Source of the DNA: a virus
Taxonomy: Duplodnaviria; Heunggongvirae; Uroviricota; Caudoviricetes
Length of the DNA: 9,093 nucleotides
IMG/VR virus record: IMGVR_UViG_2529293223_000005
Strand: one strand, 5' to 3'
The notes beneath the pieces are model-generated. The model ran no database searches. It was not told the origin of the DNA and saw only the letters and a program-made list of their open reading frames with translations. This document shows positions 1-3,516 of this stretch, piece after piece. Both the position numbers and the translations under genes were made by a program. Position 1 is the first letter of the stretch. Every line of letters begins with the position of its first letter.

Positions 1-939
1 TTATTTGATTTCAATTTTGTCCCACTCCCTGCCTCTGTCATCACGATACTGTGATGCCATGGTGTCCGACTTGTGCCCGAGAAGATGTTGAGCAAACTTA
101 TCGCTTATCTGCTTCTCATAGAGTCTTGCAGACAAATTGCGCAACTCGTGAAAGGTAGGTGGATCCCCTTCGAAGGAAAGACCTGATGCTTTTCGTGCGC
201 GCATAAAATACCTTGATACTGTGCCGGATGAAAGCGGTTCACGACGAGTAGATGCAATTATGGTTTCTCCGCCAAGAATCTCTTTGCATTTATCAAGTGT
301 TTCCTTCATTGATATCCCGAGAGCATCAACATGCAATGTTGTAGGGATGGCAATTTTTACGCCTGTTTTGCTTTGCTCGACATAAAGATATCCATCTACG
401 ATATCAGACCACTTCATTTCGCATAAATCACCAACTCGTTGCCCGGTAACAACAGCCAGTTCCATTGCAAGTCTGAGCCAACATGGTGATGATTCTGCTG
501 CTTGATAAATTTTCAGGTATTCGTCAGCCGTAAGTCTTGATCTCCTTACCTCTGATTTTGCTGCGCGAGTGGCAGCGACCGGGTTTGTTGTTATATGGCC
601 TTCAGCTATTGCCTCTCGGAATGCATCGCTCAGTGTTGATCTGATTAACTTGGCTGATGCCGCCTTGCCCTCGTCTATGTATCCATTGAGCATTGCCGCA
701 ATTTCTTTTGTGGTGATGTCTTCAAGTGGAGCATCAGGCAGCCCCCTCCTTATTGCTTTAATTTTGCTCATGTAATTTATGAGTGTCTTCTGCTTGATTC
801 CTCTGCTGGCGAGGATTTTTTCGTAGCGATCAAGCCATGAATGTAACGTAACAGAATTATCACTGTTGATTCTCGCTGTCAGAGGCTTGTGTTTGTGTCC
901 TGAAAATAACTCAATGTTGGCCTGTATAGCTTCAGTGAT
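1..939 (-). pseudogene. int: Lambda-type tyrosine integrase (Int), 5'-truncated; codons for about residues 45-356 present, N-terminal ~44 codons missing at the IS911 junction
   Basis: Minus-strand translation ends ...HLLGHKSDTMASQYRDDRGREWDKIEIK, which I recognise as the lambda Int C-terminus including the catalytic Tyr region. The reading frame continues in frame upstream of the tracked Met (ITEAIQANIELFSGHKHKPLTARINSDNSVTLHSWLDRYEKILASRGIKQKTLINY) to position 939, where the IS911 terminal repeat begins. Stop codon at 1-3. Confidence 0.9.
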
Positions 940-1011
940 TGAAGTGGCACACTGAATTTGGCCACCTGAACAGAGGTGATATGCTCACCTCAGAACAACA
1001 CAGGTGTTCCA

Positions 1012-1314
1012 ATGAAAAAAAGAAATTTTAGCGCAGAGTTTAAACGCGAATCCGCTCAACTGGTTGTTGACCAGAAATACACGGTGGCAGATGCCGCCAA
1101 AGCTATGGATGTTGGCCTTTCCACAATGACAAGATGGGTCAAACAACTGCGTGATGAGCGTCAGGGCAAAACACCAAAAGCCTCTCCGATAACACCAGAA
1201 CAAATCGAAATACGTAAGCTGAGGAAAAAGCTACAACGCATTGAAATGGAGAATGAAATATTAAAAAAGGCTACCGCGCTCTTGATGTCAGACTCCCTGA
1301 ACAGTTCTCGATAA
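1012..1314 (+). CDS. IS911 OrfA (transposase N-terminal/regulatory protein, HTH plus leucine zipper)
   Basis: [100 protein letters not shown] matches my memory of IS911 OrfA. An A-AAA-AAG slippery heptamer lies at 1263-1269 near the 3' end, the programmed -1 frameshift site. The ORF-track start at 976 is an upstream in-frame extension. Confidence 0.85.
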
Positions 1315-1340
1315 TCGGGAAACTCAGAGCGCATTATCCT

Positions 1341-2180
1341 GTGGTCACACTCTGCCATGTGTTTGGGGTTCATCGCAGCAGCTACAGATACTGGAAAAAC
1401 CGTCCTGAAAAACCAGACGGCAGACGGGCTGTATTACGCAGTCAGGTACTTGAGCTACATGGCATCAGCCACGGTTCGGCCGGAGCAAGAAGCATCGCCA
1501 CAATGGCAACCCGGAGAGGCTACCAGATGGGACGCTGGCTTGCTGGCAGGCTCATGAAAGAGCTGGGGCTGGTCAGCTGTCAGCAGCCGACTCACCGGTA
1601 TAAACGTGGTGGTCATGAACATGTTGCTATCCCTAACTACCTTGAAAGGCAGTTCGCCGTGACCGAGCCAAATCAGGTGTGGTGCGGTGATGTGACCTAT
1701 ATCTGGACGGGTAAGCGCTGGGCGTACCTCGCCGTTGTTCTCGACCTGTTCGCAAGAAAACCAGTGGGCTGGGCCATGTCGTTCTCGCCGGACAGCAGGC
1801 TCACCATGAAAGCGCTGGAAATGGCATGGGAAACCCGTGGTAAGCCCGGCGGGGTAATGTTCCACAGCGATCAGGGCAGTCATTATACGAGCAGGCAGTT
1901 CCGGCAGTTATTGTGGCGATACCAGATCAGACAGAGTATGAGCCGGCGCGGAAACTGCTGGGATAACAGCCCAATGGAACGCTTCTTCAGGAGTCTGAAG
2001 AACGAATGGATGCCGGTGGTGGGTTACGTAAGCTTCAGCGAGGCAGCTCACGCCATAACGGACTATATCGTTGGATATTACAGCGCACTAAGACCGCACG
2101 AATATAACGGTGGGTTACCCCCAAACGAATCGGAAAATCGATACTGGAAAAACTCTAACTCGGTGGCCAGTTTTTGTTGA
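1341..2180 (+). CDS. IS911 OrfB (DDE transposase catalytic domain), normally expressed as an OrfAB fusion by -1 frameshift
   Basis: 279-aa ORF in the -1 frame relative to orfA, with transposase-like motifs (..[10 protein letters not shown].., ..[15 protein letters not shown]..). The orfB frame extends upstream of the first Met listed. The true N-terminus comes from the frameshift at 1263-1269. Confidence 0.85.
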
Positions 2181-2255
2181 CCACTTCAGATTGAGGTAGC
2201 CTGAGTTTAACGGACACTCCTTCCTGAAATAGAATGGCATCAGAAGGAGCTAATA

Positions 2256-2558
2256 ATGAGCAGAAAAACCCAACGTTACTCTAAAGAGTTCAAAGCCGAA
2301 GCTGTCAGAACGGTTCTTGAAAATCAACTTTCGATCAGTGAAGGCGCTTCCCGATTATCCCTTCCTGAAGGCACTTTAGGACAATGGGTTACCGCCGCCA
2401 GAAAAGGGCTCGGTACTCCTGGTTCCCGCACGGTGGCTGAACTGGAATCTGAAATTCTGCAACTGCGTAAGGCGTTAAATGAAGCTCGCCTTGAGCGAGA
2501 TATATTAAAAAAAGCAACAGCGTATTTTGCACAGGAGTCGCTGAAAAATACGCGTTAA
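2256..2558 (+). CDS. IS600 OrfA (HTH transposase N-terminal protein)
   Basis: 100-aa ORF MSRKTQRYSKEFKAEAVRTVLENQLSISEGASRLSLPEGTLGQWV...ERDILKKATAYFAQESLKNTR. RBS AGGAG lies 7 nt upstream. A7G slippery run at 2507-2514. Confidence 0.85.
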   Translation: MSRKTQRYSKEFKAEAVRTVLENQLSISEGASRLSLPEGTLGQWVTAARKGLGTPGSRTVAELESEILQLRKALNEARLERDILKKATAYFAQESLKNTR

Positions 2559-2593
2559 TCGAACAATGGCGACAACAATTTCCCATTGAAGCG

Positions 2594-3412
2594 ATGTGTC
2601 AGGTATTTGGTGTATCCAGGAGCGGTTATTACAACCGGGTACAGCATGAACCCTCAGACAGAAAACAAAGTGATGAGCGGCTAAAACTGGAGATTAAGGT
2701 GGCACATATCCGCACTCGCGAAACATATGGAACCCGGCGGCTCCAGACGGAGCTGGCAGAGAATGGCATCATCGTTGGTCGTGACCGACTGGCACGTCTT
2801 CGTAAGGAGCTAAGGCTACGCTGTAAGCAGAAACGCAAGTTCAGAGCGACTACGAACCCGAACCACAATCTGCCAGTTGCGCCAAATCTGCTGAACCAGA
2901 CGTTCGCTCCTACAGCACCAAATCAGGTCTGGGTGGCGGACCTGACGTATGTTGCCACACAGGAGGGATGGTTGTACCTCGCTGGCATCAAAGATGTTTA
3001 TACGTGCGAAATTGTCGGCTACGCCATGGGAGAGCGCATGACAAAAGAGCTGACAGGTAAAGCCCTGTTTATGGCGCTCAGGAGCCAGCGCCCACCTGCC
3101 GGGCTAATCCACCACTCTGATCGAGGTTCACAGTACTGCGCATACGATTACCGGGTCATACAGGAGCAGTTTGGTCTGAAAACATCAATGTCGCGTAAAG
3201 GTAACTGTTACGACAACGCTCCGATGGAAAGCTTCTGGGGAACGCTGAAAAATGAGAGCCTGAGCCACTATCGTTTTAATAACCGGGATGAAGCCATCTC
3301 AGTAATACGGGAATACATTGAGATTTTCTACAATCGTCAGCGTCGTCACTCTCGTCTGGGGAATATCTCCCCGGCAGCCTTCAGGGAAAAATATCATCAG
3401 ATTGCTGCTTAA
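2594..3412 (+). CDS. IS600 OrfB (DDE transposase catalytic domain), expressed as OrfAB by -1 frameshift
   Basis: 272-aa ORF with IS3-family transposase motifs (..HHSDRGSQYCA.., ..RKGNCYDNAPMESFW..), in the -1 frame relative to orfA. Confidence 0.85.
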   Translation: MCQVFGVSRSGYYNRVQHEPSDRKQSDERLKLEIKVAHIRTRETYGTRRLQTELAENGIIVGRDRLARLRKELRLRCKQKRKFRATTNPNHNLPVAPNLLNQTFAPTAPNQVWVADLTYVATQEGWLYLAGIKDVYTCEIVGYAMGERMTKELTGKALFMALRSQRPPAGLIHHSDRGSQYCAYDYRVIQEQFGLKTSMSRKGNCYDNAPMESFWGTLKNESLSHYRFNNRDEAISVIREYIEIFYNRQRRHSRLGNISPAAFREKYHQIAA

Positions 3413-3455
3413 AAAAAGAACAAATGGTAGTGCCCGCTATTGCCAGTACACCTCA

Positions 3456-3516
3456 TTCAGTTAATGCCTCGCAGAAAAAGCGCTCCTGCTGCTTAACAAA
3501 TTCAACGATATCGAAC
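3456..3516 (-). pseudogene. 5' end of a gene (MFDIVEFVKQQERFFCEALTE...) truncated by the IS600 right end
   Basis: ATG at 3514-3516 (minus) opens a frame that runs straight into the IS600 terminal repeat at 3455. It sits immediately downstream of the Gam-like ORF, the position lambda gives to its recombinase. Confidence 0.3.

Follow-up and report, generated by a model that had tools for sequence, protein, structure and literature searches.

The locus studied here raises the question of how a lambdoid integrase gene (int) lost its first 44 codons and came to be joined, across two adjacent insertion sequences (IS), IS911 and IS600, to a block of lambdoid early genes. The stretch of DNA analyzed, referred to as the window (virus record IMGVR_UViG_2529293223_000005, 9,093 bp), was found at its full length and with 100% identity in AFGE01000023.1 (Shigella boydii 5216-82) and in PSSR01000001.1. 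Its plus strand runs from an int stump through GAT, IS911, GAT, IS600 and TTC into the early block and a second IS911, and in the source contig ybhC adjoins the int stump just left of the window. An initial annotation had read this arrangement as a single prophage in which IS911 interrupts int and IS600 then removed neighboring genes by an adjacent deletion. Comparison with related genomes led us to a different reading, namely that the region is a patchwork built in at least three steps, which consists of IS-joined remnants, most likely of two prophages, in the S. boydii chromosome.

The order in which the two elements arrived was examined in relatives that lack IS911 at this position. In the sister genome CP026877.1, in JARKNR010000001.1 and in the read-assembly ERR200451, the GAT of int is fused directly to the left end of IS600 with no IS911 between them. 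The fusion reads GCTTCAGTGAT followed by TGAGGTAGCC in CP026877.1 and JARKNR010000001.1, both of which also have the window's IS600-TTC-recT joint and its right-hand IS911/yfaX joint, and the ERR200451 contig (2.5 kb) stops inside IS600. Since these relatives carry int-GAT fused to IS600, IS600 was present at int codon 45 before IS911, and the comparison indicates that it is IS600, not IS911, that broke int. GAT stands on both sides of IS911 in the window and only one GAT is present at the empty site of the sister genome, so the match of the two triplets reflects a genuine target duplication and not chance agreement (1 in 64). Judged from the same alignments, the arrival of IS911 is the youngest event, a textbook simple insertion in which the GAT next to the IS600 tip was the target and was duplicated. 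The initial annotation was therefore right to read IS911 as a simple insertion that duplicated GAT, but the break in int that it ascribed to this insertion had already been made by IS600, as three IS911-free samples show. IS3-family elements are only rarely excised so precisely that a single target copy is restored. The opposite order, in which IS911 cut int, IS600 inserted beside it and IS911 was afterwards lost by precise excision in the IS911-free genomes, is equally compatible with the GAT on both sides of IS911 when that fact is taken alone, but we consider it very improbable, as exactly one GAT lies between int and IS600 in three samples, the donor copy is retained in copy-out transposition (PMC2909936), and rare precise excision would be needed in several samples.

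The inserted element matches IS911 in its length of 1249 bp, its orfA/orfB organization with an A6G -1 frameshift, its DDE (rve) domain, its TG...CA ends and its 3-bp duplication. It has imperfect terminal repeats (TGAAGTGG...CCACTTCA) and the ends TGAAGTGGCAC... and ...GACCACTTCA, between which 24 of 36 positions match; orfA spans 1012-1314, the slippery site lies at 1263-1269, and the -1 orfB frame is open to 2180. Pfam matches were HTH_Tnp_1 (5e-14) in orfA and rve (3e-32) in orfB, and the end region, which was the part compared, was 99.4% identical to E. coli records annotated 'IS3-like element IS911 family transposase'. With about 230-350 insertions per Shigella chromosome (PMC7373316), we estimate that a random IS911 landing in this exact register would occur at about 1e-4 per insertion. 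Targeted insertion of IS911 next to IS ends has been described, as far as can be told from its citation in PMC7986276. The window resembles what that citation conveys in that IS911 sits exactly against the tip of another IS3-family element, but differs from it in that the neighbor is IS600 rather than IS911, with only 7 of the 10 outermost end bases matching between the two. By this analogy, attraction of IS911 by the IS600 end is plausible. An exact-pattern scan of 185,579 species-representative genomes and a BLAST search of 5,426 E. coli genomes found no IS911/IS600 abutment elsewhere.

IS600 begins 3 bp past the right end of IS911, and the coordinates and flanks first reported for it (GAT versus TTC) were confirmed to the base. 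The matching 3-bp duplication is thus absent from this copy and, because its flanks are unlike, we regard it as a recombinant joint rather than a fresh insertion. The element agrees with IS600 in its 1264 bp and intact frames (orfA 2256-2558, A7 slippery site 2507-2513, orfB frame open to 3412, TG...CA ends; Pfam HTH_Tnp_1 1.5e-20 and rve 3e-26), and it was 99.7% identical to an annotated 'IS3-like element IS600' in FDAARGOS_943 (L002) and 99.5-99.8% identical to the other copies examined; it departs from simple IS600 insertions, which give 3-bp duplications, in its differing flanks. Among the distinct full IS600 copies in related prophage loci (L002-L076), 8 of 15 had matching 3-bp duplications and the other 7 had unlike flanks, with no target consensus evident in the 15 flank pairs. 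Some of the unlike pairs form reciprocal sets (AAT/TTG, CTT/AAT and CTT/TTG) and show directly that exchange between IS600 copies is frequent. IS3-family transposition proceeds through a circular copy and conservative integration (PMC2909936), and because integration is conservative, any "adjacent deletion" would need two steps, the gain of a second IS copy and then homologous recombination. As originally noted, the sequence to the right of IS600 is not int, but it is also not an unrelated early gene, since it is recT itself, a recombination gene, of which codons 1-21 remain. The TTC at 3456-3458 is the complement of recT codon 21 (GAA), and a TGA stop is supplied by the IS600 end. The intact recT site reads CGTCGG TTC AGTTAATG in L006, L007 and L010, and relatives with an uninterrupted site read ...GTCAGCGTCGG TTC AGTTAATGCC... 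Of the genes said to have been removed, the 5' part of int, xis and exo are indeed not at the locus, but recT codons 1-21 and gamL are kept.

The source of the early block was traced through its relatives. Over 5263 bp (3456-8718) it differed by 21-26 substitutions from several S. boydii and S. dysenteriae chromosomes (about 99.5% identity) and by 12 substitutions from the sister genome CP026877.1. In CP026875.1, the early region is continuous and IS-free through recT-exo, and the arm beyond exo contains two IS3-family elements followed by xis and an HK022-type int beside a putative mdtA. In CP026836.1, the block is contiguous with recT-exo-159aa-abc2' up to an IS911 right end, except for one simple IS600 insertion (TAC duplication), and in CP026846.1 and CP026877.1 the IS911 left end at the matching site adjoins abc2''-DUF2737-ead...xis-int-mdtA. 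The abc2' and abc2'' flanks fit together, with a 3-bp AAA duplication, in the sequence ATATCAAAAACAATTT, which is uninterrupted in two relatives. Because the arm could be followed through these genomes, the HK022-type int beside the putative mdtA and the early region with recT and exo once belonged to a single prophage. All three rare joints of the window recur in CP026877.1, which keeps the abc2''...xis-int arm at its putative mdtA locus, where the early block is missing, and the exact GamL protein occurs only once in this genome, at the ybhC locus. The window locus is further linked to the mdtA locus because the two halves of yfaX lie one at each. An int N-terminus and xis, which the initial annotation proposed to look for elsewhere in the genome, are present in the sister genome, the N-terminus being that of the HK022-type int, the first 55 residues of which equal those of the lambda-type Int. 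A lambda-type int stump with the window's breakpoint also occurs in S. flexneri with no prophage genes beside it. Taken together, these comparisons suggest that the early block probably did not at any time belong to the prophage from which the lambda-type int derives, and on balance we favor the reading that the int stump and the early block are the leftovers of two prophages, fused by recombination between two IS600 copies.

According to this proposal, one IS600 would have stood at int codon 45 (GAT) in the decayed remains of an old prophage at the ybhC/lambda site, and another at recT codon 21 (TTC) in a second lambdoid prophage with its own xis and HK022-type int beside the putative mdtA. 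Homologous recombination between the two copies would have produced one hybrid IS600 with unlike flanks and thereby fused the int stump to the recT'-gamL-kilR-rha-hicAB-cI-cro... block. With the orientations usual in E. coli, where ybhC and int are read from the minus strand, and the putative mdtA and the recT of its prophage from the plus strand, the two IS600 copies would be inverted repeats, and the event would have been a large inversion across the terminus, not a deletion. Comparison with the IS911-free relatives shows the third step, in which IS911 was inserted by ordinary copy-out/paste-in transposition into the GAT abutting the left end of IS600, with duplication of GAT. A separate IS911/yfaX rearrangement trimmed the block on the right.

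Several observations weigh against a two-prophage origin. The reciprocal joint that it predicts (GTCAGCGTCGGTTC / IS600 / GATTGCGATTCGCC, i.e., the 3' part of recT with TTC and GAT with the 5' part of int) was not found by junction searches or exact-protein proxies. A look-up of the 45-amino acid (aa) open reading frame (ORF) Int(1-45) showed only contig-end truncations in E. coli drafts (10 of the 10 contexts shown), with no carrying contig longer than 20 kb. The exact Exo protein was found in five Shigella chromosomes but not in the CP026877.1 chromosome or in the 3.27-Mb PSSR contig; this look-up covered contigs longer than 1 Mb (the 24 longest of 93 index blocks), with shorter ones, such as AFGE01, outside its scope. 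As neither a reciprocal junction nor Exo was found, later loss of the reciprocal piece must be assumed, and the absence of Exo is uninformative between a deletion and such a loss. The order and orientation int...recT-gamL...cI are exactly those expected from an internal deletion, and would arise with only about a 1-in-2 chance from the joining of two prophages. A mosaic lambdoid phage that combines the lambda-type int with this early region may also exist unsampled. In addition, the mdtA locus was read in the sister genome and not in the window's own assembly, and in CP026877.1 the ybhC and mdtA loci lie 1.8 Mb apart, whereas the simple model expects about 0.2 Mb. A full series of inversions leading to the two loci of CP026877.1 was attempted and abandoned; further joints must exist. 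Look-ups of a 38-aa ORF (recT'-IS600) and a 63-aa ORF (geneX-IS911) returned the same arrangement only and no intermediate. BLAST of the int/IS600 and IS911/IS600 junctions against the 5,426 E. coli genomes returned no exact junction and only nearby simple IS600 insertions, and an exact-pattern scan for int-GAT-TGAGGT in species-representative genomes gave two matches only, both in the orientation seen in Shigella flexneri.

The main rival is an origin within one lambdoid prophage at ybhC that carried lambda-type int-xis...exo-recT-gamL...cI. Here a second IS600 would have inserted in direct orientation, and RecA-dependent recombination between the copies would have removed most of recT together with exo, the accessory genes, xis and the first 44 codons of int. 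Such a deletion would keep the canonical gene order and orientation across the joint, would account for the absence of exo, the int 5' part and xis from the locus and of the exact Exo from the sister chromosome and the 3.27-Mb contig, and would leave no reciprocal junction to be found; its presumed first step, a simple IS600 insertion in int in the same orientation with the int 5' part and xis kept, is present in E. coli O145:H28 and NIID080884. What makes it unlikely in our judgment, though it deserves serious attention, is that this int type and this early region are linked in no sampled genome or phage. None of the 49 phage records with this int is named Shiga toxin (Stx)-converting, whereas most of the 114 early-block records are of Stx-converting phages (the two lists were not compared record by record). 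Moreover, the left arm of the block itself could be followed, base by base, as far as an HK022-type int beside the putative mdtA, that arm persists without the block in the sister genome, so that a deletion would need two near-identical early regions, one of them wholly lost, and the split yfaX connects the block with the mdtA arm. The IS600-mediated adjacent deletion proposed at the outset is thus not the best-supported reading, as the xis and HK022-type int of the block sit by the putative mdtA with their arm kept in a sister genome. A joint made in one step by transposase, in which a single IS600 in recT (TTC) or in int (GAT) attacked the other site intramolecularly with one end, is considered improbable. 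The circular-copy, conservative IS3 pathway (PMC2909936) alone yields neither adjacent deletions nor inversions, and the reciprocal IS600 flank sets indicate homologous exchange instead; in its favor, no two-IS600 intermediate was found, and the same int GAT is joined to IS600 ends in two lineages and in opposite orientations, which hints at a preferred strand-transfer target. Finally, misassembly at insertion sequences is a classic problem and IS911 occurs twice in the window, but it is hardly credible that the junctions are assembly artefacts of collapsed repeats. The 9093 bp are identical in two separate assemblies, and each junction recurs in further assemblies, complete chromosomes included; because the same junctions are present in independent assemblies, they are not artefacts, and the misassembly that the initial annotation had allowed for was not borne out.

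The second lineage in which this GAT is joined to IS600 is S. flexneri. In S. flexneri 2a 301 and its relatives (L053-L058, 9832/9833; L077, L078), an int of the same type at the same chromosomal position ends at the same GAT. Like the window, the CP-933K-type 'integrase fragment' by ybhC in strain 301 shares int type, position and breakpoint triplet; unlike the window, where the left end of IS600 meets GAT and the other flank is recT, it is the right end of IS600 that abuts GAT, the other flank is the pflA region (CAG or CTG), and no prophage genes are attached to the stump. Since homologous exchange between IS copies cannot flip an IS relative to the retained flank, the codon-45 GAT was either hit twice independently or joined through an unknown mechanism. 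Simple IS600 insertions in a lambda-type int, oriented as in the window and with the int 5' part and xis retained, were found in E. coli O145:H28 RM12581 (L075 4138-5401) and NIID080884 (L076 4103-5366), where they have ATC and CTC duplications and lie 64 and about 98 nt from the int start. The clustering of IS600 insertions in the 5' part of int may reflect a regional hot spot, the search having been biased toward the 5' side. A bolder and doubtful suggestion is that the first ~130 nt of lambda-type int, and especially the codon-45 GAT, are a preferred IS600 target and that IS3-family elements seek each other's tips in nature, as IS911 would have done on the IS600 end. If so, integrases of prophages at the lambda site would be repeatedly disabled, and IS clusters would be nucleated there and then drive chromosome inversions.

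Joints of the kind proposed here have precedents. Large IS-bounded inversions occur in Shigella, and the IS150-driven rbs deletions of the E. coli long-term evolution experiment are reportedly due to recombination between IS copies. The window is like these cases in having a single hybrid IS with unlike triplets at a novel joint; it is unlike them in that its two sides appear to come from two prophages and that the reciprocal product was not found. A hybrid insertion sequence with unlike flanks at a rearrangement joint is an already known signature, and the locus as a whole represents ordinary IS-driven genome decay with two known elements and no new kind of system. IS600 is one of five insertion sequences expanded in all Shigella, in which the role of IS elements in genome decay has been described (PMC7373316). 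The importance of the locus beyond annotation is small, and lies in the caution that an IS with unlike flanks beside prophage genes should not be taken as evidence of an internal deletion, given that in Shigella the sides of one IS can stem from different prophages brought together through IS recombination. It also offers a clean natural example in which the order of IS arrivals is readable from sister genomes.

The coordinates of the features in the window are listed in Table 1. The translation of the int stump (ITEAIQ...IEIK*) corresponds to residues 45-356 of a 356-aa integrase. At the protein level it shares 99.7% identity with the intact copy of E. coli FDAARGOS_943, and at the DNA level the stump was 98.5% identical to phage lambda int (J02459). 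The catalytic and central domains are present (Pfam Phage_integrase, 3.5e-40), and only the last 25 of the 74 positions of Arm-DNA-bind_1 remain. Because residues 1-44 are missing, the gene is a pseudogene of the lambda-type integrase family. The intact copy of the same int in FDAARGOS_943 stands with xis at ybhC (L002 2768-4594), and this genome, filed as E. coli, carries ipaH and many IS1 and IS600 copies and is Shigella-like or like enteroinvasive E. coli.

Table 1. Features of the 9,093-bp window, with plus-strand coordinates
Feature	Position	Strand	Remarks or basis
int stump, 3' part of a lambda/434/HK97-type tyrosine integrase gene	1..939	-	codons 45-356 and stop
GAT, Ile45 codon of int and left copy of the IS911 target duplication	937..939	.	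sequence; single GAT at the empty site in L013, L071 and L005
IS911, complete, 1249 bp	940..2188	+	left inverted repeat (IRL) starts at 940, right inverted repeat (IRR) ends at 2188
GAT, right-hand duplicate made by IS911 insertion; triplet that originally separated int from the IS600 left end	2189..2191	.	sequence comparison
IS600, complete, 1264 bp	2192..3455	+	flanks GAT (left) and TTC (right, 3456-3458)
recT stub, codons 1-21 of a 316-aa RecT-family recombinase gene	3456..3518	-	annotated homologue; intact-site alignment; Pfam RecT on the full-length homologue
gamL, host-nuclease inhibitor gene, intact, 93 aa	3536..3817	-	annotation 'host nuclease inhibitor GamL'; PF28165
hypothetical early gene, 93 aa	3838..4119	-	ORF conserved in all relatives; no Pfam match
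kilR-like cell-division inhibitor gene, 70 aa	4131..4343	-	PF27398 KilR; annotated 'cell division inhibitor protein'
Rha/ASH-family phage regulatory gene, broken	4414..5211	-	Pfam Phage_pRha 5e-27; compared with the uninterrupted 296-aa ORF of L007
hicA-hicB toxin-antitoxin pair	5954..6549	+	Pfam HicA_toxin 1e-11, HicB 7e-20
cI-type repressor gene, helix-turn-helix (HTH) and S24 self-cleaving domain, full-length, 239 aa	6937..7656	-	Pfam Peptidase_S24 2e-28, HTH_3; same length in relatives
HTH gene in cro position	7762-8001	+	ORF; weak HTH_3 match; conserved in relatives
93-aa gene in cII position	8024-8305	+	ORF; conserved in relatives
5' part (~64 codons, frameshifted) of a 128-aa hypothetical gene	8543..8718	+	cut by the second IS911; translation comparison
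second IS911 copy, first 375 bp in window	8719..9093	+	2 mismatches to the first copy; runs past the window end

The early block is a fragment of about 5.3 kb of the immunity and early-left region, with insertion sequences at both ends. Neither in the block nor within 10 kb of its IS911/yfaX end were replication, antitermination, lysis or structural genes or a second attachment site found. By its gene content, the block is a dead orphan fragment, incapable of excision, replication or lysis, although expression of the intact cI-type repressor gene, cro and hicAB may continue. To describe the region as a locked-in prophage, as had been done, understates its decay, for what remains is a 5.3-kb IS-bounded fragment with no replication, lysis or morphogenesis genes and no second attachment site. 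It is like immunity-only defective lambdoid prophages in that a cI-type repressor, cro, early-left genes and hicAB persist and the late genes are gone, and unlike them in that it is IS-bounded on both sides and lies away from its own attachment site. Within the block, the Rha/ASH gene is split into ORFs of 158 and 95 aa by a TGG to TAG (amber) change, with the stop codon at 4735-4737 (within the 4735-5211 ORF). The hicA/hicB pair between the Rha gene and the repressor gene is kept in all relatives of the early region. Aligned with the window block, the relatives L006, L007, L010 and L013 share the same ~21 gap positions in 3 openings, which may be a small deletion in 5216-82.

On its right, the block ends in a gene that precedes the helicase/primase module in intact relatives, and the empty site of the second IS911 in this gene reads CCATCTGGT / GAACGG in L006, L007 and L010. 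Just upstream of IS911, at ~8680-8718, the gene is frameshifted (...YLVDM is followed by ATVSADSS, not GNGKRGFV). In the source contig, the second IS911 ends at IS911 nt 697, where it is fused to the 3' part of yfaX (rhmR), followed by rhmD and the remaining rhamnonate genes; the int 5' part and xis, which a simple inversion would have placed beyond this element, are not there. At the mdtA arm, an IS911 truncated to the same extent is joined to the 5' part of yfaX. Thus, at two loci far from each other (L003 1357; L068 4439), a yfaX half meets IS911 nt 697 with the same polarity, and the junctions have microhomology (TTAGGGAT / GGG) to a quasi-palindrome, TAGGGAT/TCCCAA, in yfaX (intact site L070 3663/3664). 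Judged from their structure, these joints are not transposition products and look like break repair into two IS911 copies. At the mdtA locus of CP026877.1 (L068 12746-15280), xis is intact and 100% identical to that of relatives, and a simple IS600 insertion, flanked by a GAG duplication, divides the HK022-type int at nt 553. The HK022-type integrase of CP026875.1 has 72% aa identity to the window Int, and its first 55 residues are identical to those of the lambda-type Int. Its gene adjoins one for a 415-aa resistance-nodulation-division (RND) adaptor followed by two RND pump genes (1040 and 1025 aa), which, from their sizes, we take to be mdtABC.

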